Part shown: in pieces, positions 21,055-61,191 of the stretch
Position numbering within the stretch: position 1 is the stretch's first letter
How the letters are laid out: the number at the start of each line of letters is the position of its first letter
Source of the DNA: Candidatus Moranbacteria bacterium GW2011_GWC2_40_12
Lineage (GTDB): Bacteria > Patescibacteriota > Minisyncoccia > Moranbacterales > UBA11712
Assembly (NCBI GenBank): GCA_000995965.1
Contig: LBYD01000001.1
Coordinates: 279,040-343,039 of the forward strand
Reading direction: 5' to 3'
Length of the DNA stretch: 64,000 nt
Translations under genes and position numbers: made by a program
The notes under the pieces: model-generated
What the model was told of the DNA's origin: nothing
Database searches by the model: none
Seen by the model: the letters and a program-made list of their open reading frames with translations, nothing else

Positions 21055-23850
21055 TTAGGATTGAGATTTATTTTTACTTTCCGCTTTTCTTGCTTCCTCG
21101 AATATGAATACGGCCAGAGTCGCTCCGATCACCACCAGCCAGTCCCAAAAATCAATTGGCGACATATGAAGATATTTTTGAAAAAATGGAATATACATAA
21201 ACGCCAGAAGCATTCCCACTGAAATGAAAATTGAACCGATAAGCCACCTGTTCTTGAAAAATCCGATTTTGAAAACAGAGAGTTTTTCGCTTCTCGCTTG
21301 CATCAAATTGGCCATCTGGGTCATCGAGAGCACCGCATATGTCACCGCCGTCGATTTGATATAGAGCGCTGAACTGAAATCTATTTTTTCTCCGAAATTC
21401 CATCCGCCTCTTTTCATAGACCAGAGAAAGGCTACAATAGCTCCTGTCGCCATGATGAACCCGATATAAAAGAGCCGCCCGAAACCAAAACTCCCAATTA
21501 GCCGCTCGTTGGGATCAAATGTTTTTCTTTTCGTATTTCCCGCCTGCCTGCCCGTTGGCAAGGTTTCGGCCGGCTCGACGCCAAGCGCCAGCGAAGGAAA
21601 TACGTCTGTTCCAAGATCGATCGCAAGAATTTGCACTGCCGTGATGGGAGCCGGAATCATAAACAGGGTTCCGAAAATGACCGTCAAAAATTCGCTGGCG
21701 TTCGAAGAAAGGACATAATAGATGAATTTGCGAATATTTTGATAAATTGTCCTCCCTTCTTTGATTCCGGCAACAATTGAAGAGAAATTATCGTCAAGGA
21801 GAATCATGTCCGAGGCTTCCTTGGAAACATCTGTGCCGATTATTCCCATTGCCACTCCGACATCCGCCTTCTTGAGAGCTGGCGCGTCATTCACTCCGTC
21901 TCCTGTCATCGCTATAACCGCTCCCGATTTTTTGAGAACCGATGCTATGCGCAGTTTTTGCTCGGGAGTGATGCGGGCAAAAACCGAAGCGCCATTTTTA
22001 ATTCGCTTAACAATTTCATTGTCTGGCAAAGTATTCAATATCTTGCCATTAATCACAAAATTATCCGAATTATCAATTGCGAATTTCGAATTACTGCGCA
22101 AAAGATTCACCTTTTGCGCTATCGCTCTCGCTGTCACCTCATAGTCACCTGTTATCATAATCACTTTTATTCCCAATTGCTGGCATTCTTCAATGGCTTT
22201 GGCAACATCGGCTCTCGGCGGGTCAATCATCGCCATCATTCCGACCCAAATCAAATTTTTTTCGGATTCTTTTTTGCAATCGTTTTTATTATAGTTTTCG
22301 AGTGGGCAATAGGCGAAAGCCAAGACCCGAAGCGCTTGTGAAGACATCCGGTCATAAATTTCTTTTGTCTTCTTCTTTTCTTCATCTGAAAAGGGGACTA
22401 TCCCCTCCCTGGTCAATTTTTTGGGGGAGAGGCTCAAGAGAACATCCGGCGAACCCTTAATATACGAAAATATTCCATCCTTACTTCCTTGATTTCCATT
22501 GTTTTTTTCATAAATAACGCTCATGCGCATCCGTTCCGATTCGAACGGATTTTCGTCAACTTTTCGCTCCCCTGCCCCGAAATATTTCTCATCCGGATTA
22601 TATTTCCTCGCCGCGACAATCAGCGCCCCCTCTGTCGGATCGCCAATAATTTTATAATCTTCGCCTTCTTTCTCCAGGCTCGCGTCATTGCAAAGCGCGC
22701 CGATTTTGAGAATTAGGCCCAGGTTCTGAATCTTTTTCGGATCGATCGGCTTGCCATTCACAAGAAATTTTCCAGCCGGCCTGTATCCCTCCCCGCTCAC
22801 CTCGATTTCTTTCTCATCCAAAACAATTTTGGTCACCATCAGCTCATTTTTGGTGATTGTTCCCGTTTTGTCCGTGCAAATGATATTTATCGATCCGAGT
22901 GTTTCGACCGCAATCAATTTTTTTACTAGCACATTTTCCTTCATGAGCCTTCGCATCCCAAGTGAAAGAGCGACTGACATGGCCGCCGGCAGTCCTTCCG
23001 GAACCACCGAGACCGCAACCGCAAGCGCGAAAAGGAAATTCTGATACCAGGAAAGATGCTGAAATCCTCCGGCAACAAGTACCAGAACCGCGATCACCAT
23101 CGCCAAAATCGAAATATCCCTCCCAAGGGTGCGCATTTTTTTCTGAAGCGGGGTCAATTCATCCGCCACTTCTGTTGCGAGCTCGGCGATTTTTCCGAGC
23201 TCTGTTTTTATCCCCGTTGCAACGACAACCGCTTTTGCCTCGCCCTTCGTCACCTGTTCTCCAGTAAAAACCATATTTTCAATGTCCGCTATTGGAAGAC
23301 TTTCTTCAGCGATCAGTTTCGCTTCCTTTCGCTCCGGTTTTGACTCTCCCGTGAAAACAAAACTGTTCGTGTGGAGATTGTAGCTTTCGAGAATATGTCC
23401 GTCCGCCGGGACATTGTCGCCTGAAGCCATAAAAATTATGTCTCCCGGCACAATTTCACTGGCATCAATTTCTTTTTTTCGGCCATTGCGGATAACCGTC
23501 GCTTTGTCAGATGCCAGTTTTTGGATCCGATCCATAATCCGCTCTGCTTTCCATTCCTGAGAAAAACCGATTATCGAGTTAATAAGGATAATGATCAGAA
23601 TGATTGTCACGTCCTTCATTTCTCCAAACGCCAAAGCCAAAACAGCCGCTATCAGCAAGATCCATACCAATGCGTCATTGAATTGGTGCAAAACCAGCTT
23701 TGCCCATCGCCATCTCTCACGTTTTTCAATTTTGTTCGAACCGTATTCTCTCAATCGATTCCCGGCTTCCTCATCCGAAAGCCCGCCCAAATTCGTCCCA
23801 AACTTCCCCAAAACCTCTTCCGCGCTCAAATTGTATATTTGTTTTTCCAT
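21055..23850 (-). CDS. cation-transporting P-type ATPase (type II, Ca2+/Mg2+-like)
   Basis: ICTDKTGTITKN phosphorylation motif, MTGDGVNDAPALKKADVGVAMG, TGES, 10 TM. Confidence 0.9.
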   Translation of the reverse strand: MEKQIYNLSAEEVLGKFGTNLGGLSDEEAGNRLREYGSNKIEKRERWRWAKLVLHQFNDALVWILLIAAVLALAFGEMKDVTIILIIILINSIIGFSQEWKAERIMDRIQKLASDKATVIRNGRKKEIDASEIVPGDIIFMASGDNVPADGHILESYNLHTNSFVFTGESKPERKEAKLIAEESLPIADIENMVFTGEQVTKGEAKAVVVATGIKTELGKIAELATEVADELTPLQKKMRTLGRDISILAMVIAVLVLVAGGFQHLSWYQNFLFALAVAVSVVPEGLPAAMSVALSLGMRRLMKENVLVKKLIAVETLGSINIICTDKTGTITKNELMVTKIVLDEKEIEVSGEGYRPAGKFLVNGKPIDPKKIQNLGLILKIGALCNDASLEKEGEDYKIIGDPTEGALIVAARKYNPDEKYFGAGERKVDENPFESERMRMSVIYEKNNGNQGSKDGIFSYIKGSPDVLLSLSPKKLTREGIVPFSDEEKKKTKEIYDRMSSQALRVLAFAYCPLENYNKNDCKKESEKNLIWVGMMAMIDPPRADVAKAIEECQQLGIKVIMITGDYEVTARAIAQKVNLLRSNSKFAIDNSDNFVINGKILNTLPDNEIVKRIKNGASVFARITPEQKLRIASVLKKSGAVIAMTGDGVNDAPALKKADVGVAMGIIGTDVSKEASDMILLDDNFSSIVAGIKEGRTIYQNIRKFIYYVLSSNASEFLTVIFGTLFMIPAPITAVQILAIDLGTDVFPSLALGVEPAETLPTGRQAGNTKRKTFDPNERLIGSFGFGRLFYIGFIMATGAIVAFLWSMKRGGWNFGEKIDFSSALYIKSTAVTYAVLSMTQMANLMQARSEKLSVFKIGFFKNRWLIGSIFISVGMLLAFMYIPFFQKYLHMSPIDFWDWLVVIGATLAVFIFEEARKAESKNKSQS

Positions 23851-23857
23851 AGCCCTT

Positions 23858-23878
23858 CGTAGGTGTCGGACACCTACG
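23858..23878. repeat. PE-B: 21-nt perfect palindrome CGTAGGTGTC-G/C-GACACCTACG at 3' flank of RAYT-2
   Basis: distinct from PE-A; located between P-type ATPase start and RAYT-2 stop. Confidence 0.85.
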
Positions 23879-23880
23879 AT

Positions 23881-24528
23881 TTATTCTAGTAAATATTTCT
23901 CCCTTTCCTTTTTCTCTTTCATATACAAAGAATTTTCTTTTATAAATTCTCGATATTCATTCTTATTTTTAAATTCATTAAGAATAACACCTGTGTCACA
24001 AATCCCCCCGTTTCTTTTCCCAGTATAATCTAAAAAACTGGAATATGGCCAGTCAAAATCGTCACCGTATCCATGAATAAAATAGTTTTTGTTAACATAG
24101 GCTGATAAATAAAGAAGATGTGCGTTTGTCCTTATACGGATCGATTTAAATTTCCCCTGAAACAATACTCCGGATCTTTTGTAATGATAGTTGAAATAAT
24201 TTGTATAACCGCCTCCGAGCCTTTTCATATATTCAGAAATTCCATGTTCTGTTGATTGTTTTAAGATCAAGTGAAAATGATTCGGATTAAGACAATAACA
24301 TATGATTTCAACTAATTTTTCCATTCGTAGGTGTCCGACACCTACGTCTTGCTTTCTTTCTTGCTGACTGTGCCTATACAAGCTATGGATAGGATCAATT
24401 TGGTTAAATTCTTTCATGGACGTTAAAAATCGATTATAGTCTCTGTTGGATAAAAAAACTTTCCGTTTTTCAACGCCACGGTTATAAATGTGGTAATATT
24501 CATTGACATCTAGGGGTTGTTTTCTCAT
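23881..24528 (-). CDS. IS200/IS605-family Y1 transposase, RAYT-like (RAYT-2), paralog of 14337-14996
   Basis: EYYHIYNRG, NHFHLIL (HuH), YLLYLSAYVNKN, SGVLFQGKFK; own palindrome PE-B on both flanks and in-frame (VGVGHLR). Confidence 0.8.
   Translation of the reverse strand: MRKQPLDVNEYYHIYNRGVEKRKVFLSNRDYNRFLTSMKEFNQIDPIHSLYRHSQQERKQDVGVGHLRMEKLVEIICYCLNPNHFHLILKQSTEHGISEYMKRLGGGYTNYFNYHYKRSGVLFQGKFKSIRIRTNAHLLYLSAYVNKNYFIHGYGDDFDWPYSSFLDYTGKRNGGICDTGVILNEFKNKNEYREFIKENSLYMKEKKEREKYLLE
24326..24346. repeat. PE-B palindrome copy inside RAYT-2 coding sequence (in-frame)
   Basis: CGTAGGTGTCCGACACCTACG. Confidence 0.85.
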
Positions 24529-24534
24529 AAACCT

Positions 24535-24552
24535 TAGGTGTCGAACACCTAC
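24535..24552. repeat. degenerate PE-B copy at the 5' flank of RAYT-2
   Basis: TAGGTGTCGAACACCTAC (one mismatch in loop). Confidence 0.7.
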
Positions 24553-24580
24553 AAAATCATTTTACCACAAAACCGGCCGC

Positions 24581-24610
24581 TTGACGCCCCCCCCAAAAAA
24601 AAGAGATAAT
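24581..24610 (+). promoter_or_regulatory. sigma-70-like promoter TTGACG-N18-GATAAT whose spacer is a C8A8 homopolymer tract
   Basis: gcTTGACGccccccccaaaaaaaagaGATAATgg about 35 nt upstream of the PilX-like gene. Confidence 0.4.
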
Positions 24611-24642
24611 GGATATAGCTTAACCTTCTAAAACAAAAACAT

Positions 24643-25209
24643 ATGCGCGAAAACAAAAAAGGTTCCGCCCTTCTTCTCACCACCATTCTTCTTTTCGTGG
24701 TGCTTTCTATGGTAATCAGTCTTACCTATATAACCGTAATGGAGCAGAAGATGAGCGGGAAAACCAAAAGCTCCGTCGGTTCCTTCTTCAACGCCGATTC
24801 TGGAGTGGAATGGGCGCTCAACAGAATTGCCAATGCAGACAGCGATATCACCATCGCCACAGCTTTTGGCGACTCGGATATAGCTGATGGCGTCACTTGT
24901 CCCTTTCCGGGTTGCAACCTCTATTTTCTCGATGAAAATGGAAAAGTGATCTCTGACGGCAATACCTTCCGTGTTTCCGACATCAAAGCAGTCCGCTCCG
25001 TCGGGACCAACGAGACCGGTGATCCCACCCAGCGGGCTATTGAAGCGGCGGTGGCGGAGACGGGCATCGGAAAATATCAAATATCTTGCTCATTATCTGG
25101 TGCTCTAACTATGTGCTGCAGAGTGGATACAGAAACGGGATCGACCGAATGCAAGATGACTCCCGATCACCCGAATCCTTGGATTACATTTGGCAATAAG
25201 CCTTGGTAA
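24643..25209 (+). CDS. PilX-N-domain minor pilin / pseudopilin-like protein
   Basis: N-terminus KKGSALLLTTILLFVVLSMVISLTYITVMEQKMSGKTK matches PilX_N (hydrophobic helix followed by EERMAGN-like motif); Cys-rich globular C-terminal part. Confidence 0.6.
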   Translation: MRENKKGSALLLTTILLFVVLSMVISLTYITVMEQKMSGKTKSSVGSFFNADSGVEWALNRIANADSDITIATAFGDSDIADGVTCPFPGCNLYFLDENGKVISDGNTFRVSDIKAVRSVGTNETGDPTQRAIEAAVAETGIGKYQISCSLSGALTMCCRVDTETGSTECKMTPDHPNPWITFGNKPW

Positions 25210-25248
25210 TTAGAGCTTCGCTAAAGTTGAACCTTAGCGAGAATAGAA

Positions 25249-25276
25249 AGAGCGGATATTTCCGCTCTTTTTCTTT
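25249..25276 (+). terminator. intrinsic terminator downstream of the PilX-like gene
   Basis: AGAGCGGATATTTCCGCTCT + TTTTCTTTATTTT. Confidence 0.5.
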
Positions 25277-25642
25277 ATTTTATAACATAACTCGACCCAA
25301 CATTAACCATTCCTAAAGTTGAACTTTAGGAAGAGAGGATATCTCGTGGATATTGTCAGTTATTGATTGATGTCAAATCACTATCATACGATAGTAAAAC
25401 AAAAAGCTAAAAAAGGAATCGAAAAATTTTAGAGTTTTGCTAAGGTTCGACCTTAGCAAAGGCAGGAATTGGAAATTTTTTTATATTTCCTTCCTTCCCT
25501 CAATTGCGCCGGTGAGTAACCATTCCTAAAGTTTAACTTAAGGAAGTCAAAAAGAACGAGTCCACAGCTCGTTCTTTGAATATTATCCAAAAATTTGTTA
25601 TCCTAAGGCTTCCTAACATCCGATGTTAGAAAATAGAAAACT

Positions 25643-25674
25643 CACCGCTTTCGAGCGGTGGGTTTTTCTTTTGC
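25643..25674. terminator. bidirectional intrinsic terminator (serves htrA on minus strand)
   Basis: CACCGCTTTCGAGCGGTG flanked by A-rich (5') and T-rich (3') runs. Confidence 0.45.
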
Positions 25675-25747
25675 GGATTCTTTTGTAACCCTTACCAACA
25701 TTGAATGTTGGTAAGATGTTGGTAAGAAAAAAAGCGGTTTAGTTTTT

Positions 25748-25768
25748 GTAGGTGTCCGACACACCTAT
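25748..25768. repeat. degenerate PE-B copy just 3' of htrA
   Basis: GTAGGTGTCCGACACACCTAT. Confidence 0.6.
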
Positions 25769-25773
25769 GAGTT

Positions 25774-27045
25774 TCATTTCCTCTCCTCCAGTTTCACTTG
25801 AACTGTTTTTTCCTCGCCTTTGTGCCAGATTTTCAGGTTGATTGTGTCGCCGACGTTCGATTTCGCGATTTGGTCGCTCAATAGATTTTTTTCATCAATC
25901 TTCACGCCGTTTATTTCAAGAATAATGTCATTTTCCGTGAGTCCCGCTTTGTCCGCCGGACTTCCCGGAACAACCGCGAAGTCAGTCACTTTTTGCCCGC
26001 GAAGCACCAGCGCGCCATAGCCATATGGCAAATTATTTGCTTTCTTTATTTCTTCCGTTATTGGTATGTATCGCACGCCAATGTAAGGCTGGACTATTTT
26101 TCCTTTCGATTTCACGCTTTCGATGCCCTTTTTCACGATATTTATGGGAAGCGCAAAACCGATGTTTTCAGCCCCTTGCGCCATTGCAACATTCACGCCT
26201 ATCACCTGTCCGCTGATATTGAGAAGAGGCCCGCCGGAATTCCCCGGATTGATGGCCGCGTCTGTCTGAATCACCTCGCTCAAAGTTTCCGCCTGCCCGA
26301 ATCCATCTCCGGCCGTCACATTGCGTTTGAGGCCGGAAATGATTCCTTTGCTGACCGTGTTTCGAAATTCCCCGAGCGAATTTCCGATCGCAATGACCGT
26401 CTGCCCAATTTTCAAATTGCCTGAATCGGCCAATTCCAAAACCGGCAAATTGTTTCCGGCTTCGATCTTGAGAATGGCAACGTCGTTCACCGGATCGATT
26501 GCCATCACCTTAGCCGCGTGTTTTTTTTCGTCATTTGTCATCACGGTATATTCCGCCTCCTGGTCGGAAACAACATGCTTATTGGTCACAATCAGCCCAT
26601 CTTTTGAAACGATAAATCCCGAACCTCCGCCAATTTCCTGTTTTTCCGTCTCTCCCTGATTTTGCTGTTGCCTCTGGCTCGATCCGAAAGGATTGAAAAA
26701 AGGATCAAAACCGAAGGGATCGGAAAAAAAGTCCTGCATTTTTGGAATGTCTTTGGAAACAATGATACTCACCACAGCCGGCGAAGCTTTTTCGACTGAC
26801 GCCGTCACGGCCGATTCTTCATCGGGAAAATTGATGGTGCTCCCCGCACTGCCAGAATTCTTTTGCCCGACCTGATTTTGATTTTTCTTCAAAAAATCAA
26901 GGCTGAATTTTCCCTGCCCCAGATTCCCAGCCATAAAACCAAAAAGAGCCCCGAAAAATGAGGAAATGAGAAATGTGATAACAAAAAAACCGATCAGAAT
27001 TTTTTTATAAGTTTTTACCAATTCTTTGTTTTCTCGATTGAGCAT
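25774..27045 (-). CDS. htrA: HtrA/DegP-family periplasmic serine protease with PDZ domain
   Basis: GNSGGPLLN catalytic Ser motif, His/Asp triad context, C-terminal PDZ, N-terminal TM anchor. Confidence 0.9.
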   Translation of the reverse strand: MLNRENKELVKTYKKILIGFFVITFLISSFFGALFGFMAGNLGQGKFSLDFLKKNQNQVGQKNSGSAGSTINFPDEESAVTASVEKASPAVVSIIVSKDIPKMQDFFSDPFGFDPFFNPFGSSQRQQQNQGETEKQEIGGGSGFIVSKDGLIVTNKHVVSDQEAEYTVMTNDEKKHAAKVMAIDPVNDVAILKIEAGNNLPVLELADSGNLKIGQTVIAIGNSLGEFRNTVSKGIISGLKRNVTAGDGFGQAETLSEVIQTDAAINPGNSGGPLLNISGQVIGVNVAMAQGAENIGFALPINIVKKGIESVKSKGKIVQPYIGVRYIPITEEIKKANNLPYGYGALVLRGQKVTDFAVVPGSPADKAGLTENDIILEINGVKIDEKNLLSDQIAKSNVGDTINLKIWHKGEEKTVQVKLEERK

Positions 27046-28321: not shown

Positions 28322-29488
28322 TTATTTCAAACCAATATATCTTATTCCTTCGGCTTCGTCTTTTTCCAAACCCACAAAAACCTTTTTTATGTCCTCTTTG
28401 AGAATTTCTCTTCCGCCCAAGCCGTATATGAATGACTGTAATTTATAATTTGTAATGTGTAATTTGGATAAGCTGTTTAGTATTTCCATGTACAGTGGCG
28501 CCTGCGAACCAAAAGAAACCGTCCGGTCCAGAACCGCGATTTTTTTCACGTTTTTCAAGGCTTCAGCGATCTGCTTATGCGGAAACGGCCGAAATAATTT
28601 TATTTTAAGAAGTCCAACTTTTTCGCCTTGCTCTCGCAATTCGTCAACTGCGGACTTCGCCGTTCCGGCGGTTGAGCCGGCCACCACGATCACTCGTTCG
28701 GCGTCATCGATTTTATATTCTTCAAAAATATCATAAGTTCTTTCGCTAATATTTCTGAATTCCTCAAATATTCCCCCGATTTCACCGATTACCCCATCCA
28801 TCGCCTCAATTTGCTGTCTTTTAAATTCAAAGTATGAATTAGGCAGTGAAACTGGCCCGAATGTTTTTGGATTTTCAAAATCAAGCAAAGAGTTTTTCAT
28901 CTGGTATTCAGAGACGAAGCTTCGCGCGGCTGAATTTTCGAGAATTTCAATATTTTCCACGCTATGCGAGGTCGTAAAGCCGTCCATGATCACCATCGCC
29001 GGCAATCTTACTTTTTCAGCCAATCGCAAGGAGATAAAAACATTGTCATACACTTCCTGCGCATTTTCGGAAAATATTTGAATCCACCCGGAATCCCGGA
29101 CAAACATCACGTCCTGATGATCGCAATGGATATTTATCGGCGCGGAAATTGCCCGCGCGCTAACCAGCATCAAAATCGGCAGCCGCATTCCCGCGGCGAT
29201 CGGCAATATTTCTGCCATGAGCAAAATTCCCTGCGAGCTCGAAGCCGTCATCGCCCGCACTCCCGCCGCTTGGGCTCCCACTGCCGCGCTCATCGCGCTG
29301 TGTTCCGACTCGACTTCAATCATTTCCGTGTCCGCTTCACCGTCAGCAACAAACTTCGCAAAGGTTTCAATGATCGGCGTCTGCGGCGTGATCGGATAAA
29401 CCGGCATCACATCCGGATTGATTTGCTTCAAGGCTTCAGCGGCCGCGGCTCCGCCAGTCAGGGCCAGGTTTTTATTTTTATTAATCAT
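28322..29488 (-). CDS. porA: 2-oxoacid:ferredoxin oxidoreductase alpha subunit
   Basis: PorA N-terminal YPITPQT..., domain order; contains an unusual in-frame GTAATT-repeat segment near C-terminus. Confidence 0.85.
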   Translation of the reverse strand: MINKNKNLALTGGAAAAEALKQINPDVMPVYPITPQTPIIETFAKFVADGEADTEMIEVESEHSAMSAAVGAQAAGVRAMTASSSQGILLMAEILPIAAGMRLPILMLVSARAISAPINIHCDHQDVMFVRDSGWIQIFSENAQEVYDNVFISLRLAEKVRLPAMVIMDGFTTSHSVENIEILENSAARSFVSEYQMKNSLLDFENPKTFGPVSLPNSYFEFKRQQIEAMDGVIGEIGGIFEEFRNISERTYDIFEEYKIDDAERVIVVAGSTAGTAKSAVDELREQGEKVGLLKIKLFRPFPHKQIAEALKNVKKIAVLDRTVSFGSQAPLYMEILNSLSKLHITNYKLQSFIYGLGGREILKEDIKKVFVGLEKDEAEGIRYIGLK

Positions 29489-45665: not shown

Positions 45666-47417
45666 TCACCAGCTTCCTCCGCCTCCGCCACCGAATCCAC
45701 CGCCACCTCCCCCTCCGGAAAAACCGGAACCGCCGCCGGATGCTGAAGATGGCTGGCTGGCCATGGCCGTCCCGGCTGTATTCGAAAAATCATTTATCAG
45801 GCTTGATAAAATTATAGCATTGAAAGCCCGCCCAGACGAATCCTCGTACCAGTCCGGCTGCTGGTTGTATATTCCTTCAAATTGCTTCGCCCATTCTTTT
45901 TCAACCCCAAGAACCATCGCGTAGGGTAGAAATCTTTCGAACATCTGGGGATTTTTCTCGGGCGCGTTATGAAATTTCAACCGATCCGTTTCCGTGACAG
46001 AGAGAAAATCCTTGAATCCCAGAATATTTTCCTTGATCCCGGCGCCTTTTTTGGTCACCGCCGGCATCAGCCAGCCAAAGATTGCTATGATTATCGTCGA
46101 GACAATCCCGCTAAACACTCCCCATCCTCCCTGAAGATTGCCGAAAATCACTGTGAGGAATACTCCGCCGATTATCCCGCCAATAAGCCAACCAGCTCTC
46201 GTACTATTCGGATTTGAAACATAATATCCTTTTTCTGTGATGCCCTTATAAAGCTGGTCTTTTACCGCCGCGAGGGTTTTGAAAAATTTGTTTTTGAGAT
46301 CCGATAATTTCTTTTCTTTATCCCCATTGAAGATTCCCTTCATCACTTCTTTTTCAAAATCCCGCGTCGGCTCTTCATCCTTGATTTTAATAAACGTATA
46401 ATCCTTGCTTTTCGTCCCGAAAAATCCCTTTTCCTCCGTGCGTTTGATTTTCAAGAATTTGTTGACAGCCAGATCAATGATTGTCGAAGAAACATCCTTG
46501 TTGTCCGCCGAACCATCCATCATTGTTCCGATTTCCGCCGGCGCGAGCTTGTCCGGCGGTTCATATTGCGCGATGATTGTCCCCCGCCCTTTCGGGTCAC
46601 GGCCCTTTTTGCTCCAAAGGCGATACATAAAGACAAAAACAATGATTGGAAAAAATAGCGTCCAGTTATCGCGCGCGATATCCATAATTTTTACCCTAGA
46701 GCTCAGCTCTAGGGTAATTCCTTTCGGCCAGCCGGCGACAATCGTCATCCCTTCGCCGGGATTGATTATTCCCGTTGATTTATATTCTAAAATATTTCCG
46801 CTCGCGCTTGCCACGCATTCATTCGTGGTCCCAAAAACTCCTTCAAAGCATTTGTACTGCAAATTTTCTATGGCGTTTTCTGGAAGAATAATTTTGAGCG
46901 CTGCGCTCTCAATGGGGACTGGCCATTTGTCGCCCGTGAAGTTCCAATAAAGCTCATCGTGATCTGGGAAAAAATTCACCGCCCGACGAATTACGTAACT
47001 AATTACGTAATTCTTCGTCCCGCTGACGTATTTGTCCGCGTCGCCGATTTGAAATTTTATATTCTCGCCCTCGTAATCCGTGGTGAAATTATACGGCGCG
47101 CCGTTTTCGTCCGTGATTTTCATGTTCGAAACCCGCAAATTATAATTCCCTCCCCGCGCTTTGTATTTCACCGGAATGAACCGGAAAATTCCGTGCTTCT
47201 GCTGGTCGCCAAAGTCATAAGCGATAGTCTCTTTTACATCAATCGTGCTGTCTGAGTTTATTCGGATATCGCCGATGAAATTTATGATTTTCTCGGTGCT
47301 AGGATAACTTTGTGCAAAAGATGAATTTAAGGAAAATATAAGAAATAAGAAACAAGAAATAAGAAAAATTGGAAATTTTTTATTTCTTCTATTTATTTTT
47401 TCTATTTTATTTCTCAT
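45666..47417 (-). CDS. DUF2207-like membrane protein (large extracytoplasmic N-domain, C-terminal TM pair, Gly-rich tail)
   Basis: signal peptide, ...GGGSGFSGGGGGGGFGGGGGGSW tail; carries in-frame PE-C palindrome (TLELSSRV). Confidence 0.65.
   Translation of the reverse strand: MRNKIEKINRRNKKFPIFLISCFLFLIFSLNSSFAQSYPSTEKIINFIGDIRINSDSTIDVKETIAYDFGDQQKHGIFRFIPVKYKARGGNYNLRVSNMKITDENGAPYNFTTDYEGENIKFQIGDADKYVSGTKNYVISYVIRRAVNFFPDHDELYWNFTGDKWPVPIESAALKIILPENAIENLQYKCFEGVFGTTNECVASASGNILEYKSTGIINPGEGMTIVAGWPKGITLELSSRVKIMDIARDNWTLFFPIIVFVFMYRLWSKKGRDPKGRGTIIAQYEPPDKLAPAEIGTMMDGSADNKDVSSTIIDLAVNKFLKIKRTEEKGFFGTKSKDYTFIKIKDEEPTRDFEKEVMKGIFNGDKEKKLSDLKNKFFKTLAAVKDQLYKGITEKGYYVSNPNSTRAGWLIGGIIGGVFLTVIFGNLQGGWGVFSGIVSTIIIAIFGWLMPAVTKKGAGIKENILGFKDFLSVTETDRLKFHNAPEKNPQMFERFLPYAMVLGVEKEWAKQFEGIYNQQPDWYEDSSGRAFNAIILSSLINDFSNTAGTAMASQPSSASGGGSGFSGGGGGGGFGGGGGGSW
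46691..46717. repeat. PE-C: palindrome TTACCCTAGAGCT-C-AGCTCTAGGGTAA in-frame in DUF2207 gene
   Basis: identical 25-nt core also inside secA at 55354-55378. Confidence 0.8.
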
Positions 47418-50259: not shown

Positions 50260-50305
50260 ATTTTTGTTTTAGAGAATTTAGAATTTGGAATTGCGAATGG
50301 GAATA

Positions 50306-50370
50306 GAGAATTGTGAATTTAGAATTCCAAATCCTATATTTATATTCTCAATTCTAAATTCACAATTCTC
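50306..50370. repeat. long inverted repeat: 21-nt arms GAGAATTGTGAATTTAGAATT / AATTCTAAATTCACAATTCTC separated by 23 nt, between rnc and smc
   Basis: perfect 21-bp complementary arms; embedded in GAATT-rich direct repeats. Confidence 0.6.
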
Positions 50371-50380
50371 AATTCTATTT

Positions 50381-51074: not shown

Positions 51075-51170
51075 GCATGACTGTAATTGGTAATTTGTAA
51101 TCGGTAATTGGGGATTTTAAAAATATCCTAATTACGAATTACTAATTACGAATTACTAATTACTTAAAAA
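51075..51170. repeat. GTAATT/TACGAAT-type repeat block between nusB stop and rnc start
   Basis: gtaattggtaatttgtaatcggtaattgggg...cctaattacgaattactaattacgaattactaattac. Confidence 0.55.
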
Positions 51171-60465: not shown

Positions 60466-60611
60466 TTCATTAAAAATAAAATCTTCCGCATAGGAAGATA
60501 AGAAATTTATATCTTTCCCTTGCGGGCTAGAGGTAGCACCACGTCTAATAAAAATTAGATTGGTTGCTGGCAGGTCGCAGGGCTAGTTCCCTCGCTGCGC
60601 TCTTGATACTC
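60466..60611 (-). promoter_or_regulatory. SAM-I (S-box) riboswitch with terminator expression platform in the metK leader
   Basis: minus-strand AUCAAGAG-CGCAGCGAGGGAACUAGCCCUGCGACCUGCCAGCAACC...GGUGCUACCUCUAGCCCGCAAGGGAAAGAUA matches SAM-I core; followed by AUCUUCCUAUGCGGAAGAU + UUUAUUUUU just before ATG. Confidence 0.7.
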
Positions 60612-60699
60612 GCCCCGACCTTAATGCGTCGGGGCTTTATTCAATTTTCGAAAGATATATGTATTATAGCGTTTTATATATTCGAGTCAAGGACAATAG

Positions 60700-60772
60700 T
60701 GGACCCGAGGGGATTCGAACCCCTCGCCTCCTCGGTGCAAACGAGGCGCTCTACCAAATGAGCTACGGGCCC
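60700..60772 (-). tRNA. tRNA-Ala (anticodon UGC)
   Basis: cloverleaf folds; G3:U70 identity pair; anticodon loop UUUGCAC. Confidence 0.85.
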
Positions 60773-60789
60773 AAATATACAGTTTATCT

Positions 60790-60860
60790 TGTAAGGCTGT
60801 AAAACAAAAAAGGCGCTCGGACCCTGTCCGCCTTTGGCGGAAAATGAGCTACGGGCCCGC
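60790..60860. repeat. element upstream of tRNA-Ala: conserved hairpin (GGCGCUCGGACCCUGUCCGCC) plus direct copy of the first 20 nt of tRNA-Ala
   Basis: aaaatgagctacgggcccgc at 60841-60860 duplicates tRNA 5' end (60753-60772). Confidence 0.6.
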
Positions 60861-60877
60861 AAACCTAGTTCAAGATG

Positions 60878-60990
60878 CAAAAATCAAAATGAAAAATTTT
60901 GGTGTTCGCTTCGCTCACTTATTTTTAAAAAATAATCATCGCGAAGCGATACATTAATTTTGCACTTTTAATTTTGAATTTTCAATTTAT
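60878..60990. repeat. about 110-bp dispersed repeat with inverted TCGCTTCGC/GCGAAGCGA arms (copy 1)
   Basis: about 85% identical to 63068-63175. Confidence 0.7.
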
Positions 60991-60994
60991 TATG

Positions 60995-61068
60995 TGGGCG
61001 ATCGAGGATTCGAACCTCGGACCTCGTCATTATCAGTGACGCGCTCTAACCAACTGAGCTAATCGCCC
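60995..61068 (-). tRNA. tRNA-Ile (anticodon GAU)
   Basis: cloverleaf folds; anticodon loop CUGAUAA. Confidence 0.85.
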
Positions 61069-61118
61069 AAAGTTTGTTTCTTGCTACGTAGTTTGTTACG
61101 TAACGAGGTAAGTAAATG

Positions 61119-61191
61119 TGGGTCGTGCAGGGATCGAACCTGCGACCATCAGCTTAAAAGGCTGCTGCTCTACCAACTGAGCTAACGACCC
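61119..61191 (-). tRNA. tRNA-Lys (anticodon UUU)
   Basis: cloverleaf folds; anticodon loop CUUUUAA. Confidence 0.85.

Follow-up and report, generated by a model that had tools for sequence, protein, structure and literature searches.

A homopolymeric C8A8 spacer in the predicted promoter of an orphan PilX-like gene of Moranbacteria: a candidate contingency promoter

Background

Homopolymers or short repeats of variable length in the promoters of surface-protein genes are a device of known kind in pathogens. In Neisseria meningitidis, the length of the spacer tract of opc (poly-C) and porA (poly-G) sets high, intermediate or no expression; in Mycoplasma hyorhinis, a reduced-genome, host-dependent bacterium, poly-A between the −35 and −10 elements of the vlp genes switches surface proteins; and in Haemophilus influenzae, the pilus genes hifA and hifB are served by divergent promoters in one short intergenic region, with TA repeats in the spacer. 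Here we analyze a tract of eight C and eight A residues (C8A8) that occupies the spacer of a predicted promoter upstream of an orphan PilX-like minor-pilin gene in Candidatus Moranbacteria bacterium GW2011_GWC2_40_12, within a 64,000-nucleotide stretch of contig LBYD01000001.1 (hereafter, the window, in which all coordinates are given unless a locus is named).

The locus resembles opc and porA in that a homopolymer lies in or at the −35/−10 spacer of a surface-protein gene. It differs in that the neisserial systems have been proven by experiment, involve tracts of 9–14 nt and occur at many loci of a Gram-negative pathogen, whereas the present case is comparative and comes from an uncultured groundwater bacterium belonging to the Candidate Phyla Radiation (CPR). 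In contrast to vlp, with a poly-A of ~17–20 nt and a family of lipoproteins, the tract described here is a poly-C of 8–10 nt (with A8 in addition) at a single slot with interchangeable cargo. In hifA/hifB, a dinucleotide repeat lies in both overlapping spacers and the two genes switch jointly; here, the tract lies in one spacer and upstream of the other promoter.

The parallel that the original prediction drew with the fim poly-C promoters of Bordetella (fim2, fim3 and fimX in B. pertussis and B. bronchiseptica) holds in principle: there, too, a poly-C lies in the promoter of a fimbrial subunit gene, the product belongs to a surface appendage and alleles differ by one base. It does not hold in detail, because the C-stretch of Bordetella is located between the BvgA ‘fim box’ and the −10 element, acts in an activator-dependent manner and is usually longer, up to C19, whereas here the run of C8–C10 lies between canonical −35 and −10 hexamers, with no known activator.

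CPR bacteria (Patescibacteria) presumably live attached to other microbes. Two reports on cultivated Saccharibacteria describe type IV pili as needed for host attachment (PMC9894109, PMC11623550). Among strains of Bordetella, C7 and C8 alleles of fimX have different transcript levels (PMC1891110), and a study on N. meningitidis describes a poly-A promoter tract for the surface-protein gene nspA (PMC6389960). A full-text literature search returned no report linking Patescibacteria or CPR with homopolymer-based phase variation or with phase-variable promoters; the nearest CPR report concerns a Gracilibacterium with a hypervariable tandem-repeat gene (PMC6851277). Thus, in the literature searched, no device of this kind has been reported for CPR.

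Results and Discussion

A promoter-like element with a homopolymeric spacer

The plus-strand block 24580–24612 reads cTTGACG-CCCCCCCC-AAAAAAAA-GA-GATAATgg, the tract itself being bordered by …GCTTGACG and GAGATAAT…. The −35 hexamer TTGACG (24581–24586) and the −10 hexamer GATAAT (24605–24610, ending 32 nt before the ATG) were located by sequence and by a consensus scan. Between them lies the 18-nt spacer CCCCCCCCAAAAAAAAGA (24587–24604), composed of C8 (24587–24594, the conserved and presumably slippage-prone part), A8 (24595–24602, the second half) and a terminal GA (24603–24604), so that 16 of the 18 spacer nucleotides belong to two homopolymers. The sequence is as described in the original prediction. 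Apart from the C8 run, no G/C run in the 64 kb exceeds 6 nt. C8 is of the size (~7–8 nt for G/C) taken as the length criterion for slippage in an uninterrupted homopolymer, and A8 directly adjoins it.

In the consensus scan, this was the sole plus-strand sigma-70-like site within 23800–25900 (10/12 consensus positions), and no other promoter candidate was found in the 114-nt divergent intergenic region that separates the start of the neighboring transposase gene (24528) from that of the pilin-like gene (24643). A sigma-70-like match alone is nevertheless weak evidence, given that 30 sites match at least 10 of 12 positions in the whole window, compared to 19.6 ± 5.1 in shuffled sequences; its meaning must come from context and comparison. 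We therefore turned to the gene family: an alignment of its members, used to scan JGI metagenomes and the genomes of the Genome Taxonomy Database, yielded ~95 loci (labelled L below), and 48 non-redundant family genes were analyzed. In 29 of the 48, −10-like hexamers peak 25–34 nt before the ATG, and GATAAT of the window, at 32 nt, falls inside this peak. The leader of the window gene (24611–24642, …CTTCTAAAACAAAAACAT) is short and A-rich and has no Shine-Dalgarno motif. In the family, the A-rich leader motif TAAAAYAAAA is present in 22 of 48 genes, and a Shine-Dalgarno-like motif was found in none of the 48. Such motifs are scarce across the window as well, with 6 of its 45 long open reading frames (ORFs) having one, given the start codons picked by a mechanical ORF finder. 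Leaders in the window are A/T-rich, and several contain …CTAAAACAAAAA….

The tract thus fills the space between conserved hexamers, with the −10 at a distance from the ATG that is typical of the family. From this arrangement, the two hexamers are likely to constitute a working promoter, with cargo transcription predicted to start ~7 nt past the −10. Among tract-less paralogous promoters with a callable −35, the modal spacer is 17 nt (7 of 12), and the present spacer of 18 nt is one above this usual value of the clade.

A fortuitous pair of homopolymers, or a sequencing or assembly error, beside a fortuitous promoter-like match would be another account of these features. The modest enrichment of promoter-like matches over shuffles is compatible with it, and so is the presence of one G/C run of at least 8 nt, given that a model of independent bases predicts 0.8 per window and a first-order Markov model 1.7. 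However, the expectation for the composite C8A8 is 2.5e-5, and G/C runs of at least 6 nt are, in fact, depleted in the window (9 observed vs 23.7 expected). Furthermore, six other same-species assemblies from different samples read C8A8 identically, so that, with the window, seven assemblies from different samples and assemblers carry the same sequence; because these independent assemblies agree, C8A8 is not an assembly artefact. The agreement, together with conservation of the module in orthologous loci (below), already largely refutes an origin by chance or artefact, which we regard as highly improbable.

Our preferred interpretation, held with moderate confidence and based on sequence comparison, is that the C8(A8) spacer is a homopolymeric, slippage-prone contingency promoter that drives the orphan PilX-like gene. 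As a general rule, the strength of sigma-70 promoters depends on spacer length, and by analogy, spacer length would be expected to set the strength of the cargo promoter. Slipped-strand mispairing during replication, by adding or removing one C (or A), would alter the −35/−10 distance around the optimum of 17 nt, such that a loss would give a 17-nt spacer and a stronger promoter, and a gain a 19-nt spacer and a promoter that is weaker or off. Cells would then differ, heritably but reversibly, in how much of a pilus-tip or surface protein they make. A slippage-prone promoter in front of a pilus-tip-like gene translates into a concrete hypothesis, namely stochastic on/off or graded display of an adhesin in a CPR bacterium with a tiny genome; should the tract prove stable, the analysis still charts, for a large pilin family of Moranbacteria, a conserved architecture of sigma-70-type promoter and leader.

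Conservation of the C-run at an orthologous chromosomal slot

Loci at the same chromosomal slot were collected via the pilin family and via orthologues of the transposase. The slot is arranged as P-type ATPase, RayT-like transposase, hairpin, promoter, cargo gene and HtrA, and the module of −35, C-run and −10 occurs there in at least 7 other lineages, in which the flanking DNA is only 70–78% identical to that of the window. In 10 orthologous promoters, the −35 is kept as TTGACR, with TTAACA in one lineage, and the ATAAT core of the −10 is invariant across 11 aligned orthologous promoters. This conservation of −35, C-run and −10, combined with the family peak of the −10 and the lack of another intergenic candidate, argues that the promoter was correctly assigned in the original prediction.

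Slots with a PilX-like cargo gene comprise, in addition to the window (TTGACG; C8 A8 GA, 18 nt), L008 (TTGACA; G C8 GAAAAAAG, 17 nt), L028 (TTGACA; G C9 GGAAAGAG, 18 nt), L029 (TTGACG; C9 GAAAAAAGA, 18 nt) and L058 (TTGACG; CCTCCCCGGAAAGAAGA, with the interrupted run CCTCCCC, 17 nt). In three further groups, the cargo is a different gene: a 182-aa signal-peptide protein in L100/L101 (TTAACA; G C9 or C10 GAAACGAA, 18/19 nt), a 145-aa signal-peptide protein in the L117/L115 group (TTGACG; C9 or C10 GAAAAAGGA, 18/19 nt) and a 206-aa N-anchored protein in L122/L121 (TTGACA; G C9 or CCCTCCCC TTAAAATG, 18/17 nt). Pfam searches assigned no family to these three alternative cargo proteins. The cargo gene thus varies by lineage, and its product is always exported or membrane-anchored (PilX-like, with a signal peptide or with an N-terminal anchor).

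The run is pure in seven lineages, with C8 in the window and L008, C9 in L028, L029, L100, L117 and L122, and C10 in L101 and L115/116/118/119/120; these pure runs of C8–C10 correspond to spacers of 17–19 nt. The A8 part is particular to the species of the window, the orthologues having GAAAAAA, GGAAAGAG or similar sequences. With flanks only 70–78% identical, a neutral run of 8–10 identical bases should have decayed. Only two interrupted alleles were found, L058 (CCTCCCC) and L121 (CCCTCCCC), both with the canonical 17-nt spacer.

These data bear directly on a static alternative, whereby the promoter has a fixed, functional 18-nt C8A8 spacing, is constitutive or otherwise regulated, and the differences between sister lineages are slow indels or consensus errors. 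The two interrupted alleles, which keep the promoter without a pure repeat, fit this view; so do the general observation that spacers of 17–18 nt are functional in sigma-70 promoters and the fact that one G/C run of at least 8 nt per 64 kb is expected from composition, as given above. The persistence of pure C8–C10 runs in seven lineages at this level of DNA divergence is evidence to the contrary.

In several related species, we observed LOOT RNAs (Rfam RF03000, 54–95 bits) in the same slot between the RayT-like gene and HtrA, namely at L099 12–135, L102 1322–1455, L103 1271–1402 and L069 2277–2411. They are followed by genes of 231–402 aa without Pfam matches, and these slots contain neither a poly-C promoter nor a pilin-like gene.

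Tract-length differences between closely related assemblies

Two pairs of near-identical assemblies, with 99.9–100% identity around the tract, differ in the tract itself. L100 and L101, which were obtained from two different samples but share one transposase protein sequence, differ over ~2.9 kb (L100 734–3592) solely by C9 vs C10; between L115 and L117, a single mismatch accompanies the C10/C9 indel in 2415 nt, and four further assemblies of the latter lineage read C10. By contrast, 0 of the 13 A/T runs of 7–8 nt in the same stretches vary. In a third pair, L121 and L122, the transposase proteins are the same and the DNA is 98.4% identical, with CCCTCCCC in the former and C9 in the latter. 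A difference in 2 of 2 tracts compared to 0 of 13 A/T runs is not what a static promoter would lead one to expect. The change in tract length that the original prediction anticipated is thus seen, as C9 vs C10, in two sister lineages; it is not seen in the species of the window.

Several observations weigh against the contingency interpretation. The window and six further same-species assemblies (including L001, L003, L133, L134 and L135) all read C8A8, which is the chief argument for a static promoter, and L135 does so despite 12 substitutions nearby. C8 is the shortest pure allele, and the variation elsewhere is at C9/C10. The C9 and C10 calls are consensuses of short-read assemblies, in which homopolymer miscalls are possible and which show the dominant allele of each population. 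Promoters with a spacer of 18 nt can still function, and this one may simply be constitutive. Finally, the interrupted alleles keep a spacer that is C-rich and then A/G-rich, so that composition rather than the repeat could be what is conserved. Because all same-species assemblies read C8A8, we infer, rather than observe, switching in the species of the window, and the same applies to slippage of its C8 allele at a useful rate. Taking both sides together, we consider a static promoter possible but rather doubtful.

JGI metagenome contigs were scanned for tracts of other lengths with a DNA pattern in which CCGGCCGCTTGACG and GAGATAATGGATATAGC are separated by 4–34 nt; nothing was returned, the species being seemingly absent from this collection. 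Contig ends near the tract (at 13 nt in L118 and L120, at 31 nt in L119) were considered as a sign of read heterogeneity and discarded, as was the start of L131 inside a G-run, which was given no weight; in both cases, the distances do not fit simple k-mer branching.

Poly-C and poly-G runs at other PilX-family genes

The contingency interpretation also draws on the distribution of G/C homopolymers outside the slot. In 347 kb of related loci (L004–L098), there are 7 G/C runs of at least 8 nt, all 7 at PilX-family genes: 5 in promoter spacers (3 of the C-type and 2 of the G10-type) and 2 within coding sequences. The G10-type is a second, unrelated promoter, TTGACA-N9-G10-TATTCT, with a 19-nt spacer (L007 2396–2405 and L051 176–185, also L127–L132), which precedes other PilX-like genes; in L007, a Y1 transposase gene adjoins it. 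In 2 of the 7 assemblies of this promoter, G10 has become G11 via a T-to-G change. Both the confinement of the long G/C runs to a single gene family and the existence of a second, independent G10 promoter type speak against a static promoter; together with the exported cargo throughout, they support contingency control.

The two coding-sequence runs, G8 in L037 (2903–2910, in a Gly linker) and G9 in L055 (494–502), are located where the conserved N-terminal domain meets the variable C-terminal domain, or just past that point. A one-base shift here would replace or truncate the C-terminal domain, and these runs may be sites of translational phase variation or C-terminal switching.

More tentatively, Moranbacteria might maintain a fixed-position, phase-variable expression slot, in which a poly-C cassette is tied to a domesticated RayT-type transposase and a hairpin, and surface-protein genes are swapped behind it; the swapped cargo would be PilX-like tip pilins, whose C-terminal domains are exchangeable, as well as small secreted proteins. 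If such a slot exists, then with the G10 promoters and the poly-G Gly linkers of paralogues counted in, CPR would have its first described set of contingency loci, and stochastic switching of attachment proteins would be a form of bet-hedging for finding or keeping host cells.

A/T runs show a different pattern. In the same 347 kb, there are 404, 109, 6 and 1 A/T runs of length 7, 8, 9 and 10 nt, respectively, and the window has 28 A8/T8 runs and none of at least 9 nt. A technical artefact as the source of the 8-nt ceiling was rejected: the same A/T cliff occurs in many assemblies, yet C9, C10 and G10 are present there. The lineage-wide A/T cliff after 8 nt explains the absence of longer runs from the window, and its abruptness suggests that long homopolymers are costly in this lineage.

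The pilin-like gene and its family

The cargo gene of the window (24643–25209, plus strand, with the ATG at 24643) encodes a 188-aa protein of the PilX_N family. It is followed by a terminator-like hairpin with a T-run (25245–25272, plus strand; a 12-bp stem with 5 G–C pairs and a T-rich tail). The protein is identical to one that is annotated as a ‘putative exported protein’ in Candidatus Moranbacteria bacterium GW2011_GWC1_45_18, likewise a CPR bacterium, and 23 further contigs, beyond the assemblies compared at the tract, carry the identical protein. Its Pfam PilX_N (PF14341) match is a marginal pass (25.9 bits with a gathering cut-off of 25.5); among 31 homologues, 26 match PilX_N, with a best E-value of 1.7e-9. 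It begins with a class III prepilin-like leader, MRENKKG/SALLLTTILLFVVLSMVISL (SALLLTTILLF…), that is, a short basic N-terminus and a Gly followed by a hydrophobic helix, and this glycine (G7) is invariant in the 31 homologues. The Glu at +5 is absent; GspK/PilX-type minor pilins likewise have no Glu at this position. In the AlphaFold model (predicted local distance difference test score, pLDDT, 76.6), a beta-sheet comes after a long N-terminal helix, and a Foldseek search of the model against the PDB gave no significant match. The assignment as pilin-like made in the original prediction is thus borne out by the PilX_N match, the leader and the homologues, and so is its remark that the gene is among the very few plus-strand genes of the window, nearly all remaining genes being on the minus strand. 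The encoded protein may be a pilus-associated adhesin.

The gene is an orphan, with P-type ATPase, RayT-like transposase, HtrA and pyruvate:ferredoxin oxidoreductase subunit genes as neighbors. The ORFs of the window that were scanned yielded no genes for type IV pilus machinery, a result that bears on operon membership only. A tblastn search with 120 family proteins against 25210–25773 and the rest of the window detected no silent C-terminal cassettes and no further PilX paralogues.

Across the family, a conserved N-terminal module of ~140 residues is combined with highly variable, Cys-rich C-terminal domains. In P0002, P0033 and P0036, for example, a near-identical N-terminal module of ~135 residues is joined to unrelated C-terminal domains, and many genes of the family are located at contig ends. 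The shared N-modules and the contig-end location suggest shuffling of C-terminal domains among multi-copy paralogues.

All 12 differences between the window and L135 fall within 156 nt (24702–24857), in the part of the gene that encodes the conserved N-terminal region. This clustering suggests that the gene recombined with a paralogue, or else that the assembly is chimeric. Tandem 7-nt repeats (GAGAATT x8, AATTCTA x8, CTAATTA x5 and others) occur in the window at 50272–50377, 51128–51164, 47338–47366 and 28437–28466, mostly between long ORFs, and in related loci, many pilin-family genes have similar repeats of the GAAAATT type upstream.

The divergent transposase gene and palindromic elements

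On the other side of the tract, a minus-strand gene (23881–24528) encodes a 215-aa Y1 transposase of the IS200-like, RayT type (Pfam PF01797, E-value 9.5e-8); JGI annotates its orthologues as ‘REP element-mobilizing transposase RayT’. It has the character of a single-copy gene at a conserved chromosomal position rather than of a mobile, multi-copy insertion sequence, the synteny of ATPase, transposase, slot and HtrA being maintained in many lineages. A minus-strand extended −10 of the TGnTAAAAT type (TGGTAAAAT, 24559–24567) is the putative promoter element of this gene. With the plus-strand cargo promoter in the same 114 nt, two promoters would stand back to back. A palindrome resembling repetitive extragenic palindromic (REP) elements, TAGGTGTCGAACACCTA (24535–24551), lies between the transposase start and the promoters, with a hairpin at the same place in orthologues, and a second one is located just 3′ of the transposase stop (23860–23876). 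In addition, the block ATTTTAnCAnAAAA is kept in 10 of 11 orthologous modules.

This arrangement raises the question of whether the tract serves the divergent RayT/REP-hairpin module instead of the cargo, as an UP element of the transposase promoter or as part of a site that the Y1 enzyme recognizes or cleaves. On the minus strand, G8 and T8 are positioned just upstream of the −35 position of the transposase promoter, where UP elements sit; the conserved extended −10 is 14 nt from the cargo −35; and the hairpin, ATTTTAnCAnAAAA, TTGACR and the C-run travel with the transposase side while the cargo gene changes. However, L121 and L122 retain the module with an adenylate kinase gene, rather than the transposase gene, as the divergent neighbor, and the LOOT-RNA loci have the transposase but no tract, so the tract is dispensable for the transposase. 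The tract is placed exactly between hexamers that point to the cargo gene, and the remaining REP-like palindromes of the window have no adjoining C-run. We therefore judge a role of the tract in the transposase module improbable.

The palindrome TAGGTGTCSGACACCTA has 4 copies in the window, compared to 0.02 expected (23860–23876, 24328–24344, 24535–24551 and 25749–25765), all within 23860–25765. Two of these flank the transposase gene, one is in frame inside its ORF (…DVGVGHL…) and the fourth is in the interval from the pilin-like gene to HtrA. The region 25210–25773, a non-coding stretch of ~560 nt, is rich in different 19-nt palindromes with an 8-bp stem and a 3-nt loop (for example, CCTAAAGTTGAACTTTAGG and GCTAAGGTTCGACCTTAGC). 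Other 19-nt palindromes are TTGGAAACTWAGTTTCCAA, with 4 copies (4994, 14314, 14512 and 15007), and CCTAGAGCTCAGCTCTAGG, with 2 copies (46695 and 55358); by their coordinates, several palindromes of these types are within long ORFs (a DUF2207 protein and SecA), reminiscent of palindromic elements that insert in frame.

In L134 (JGI 3300009285), a single-base deletion relative to position 24208 of the window truncates the RayT-like product to 122 aa, and the transposase may be decaying in some strains. Elsewhere in the window, an S-adenosylmethionine (SAM) riboswitch was identified on the minus strand at 60506–60612 (RF00162, 47.1 bits with a gathering score of 44.4), and three minus-strand tRNA genes at 60700–61191.

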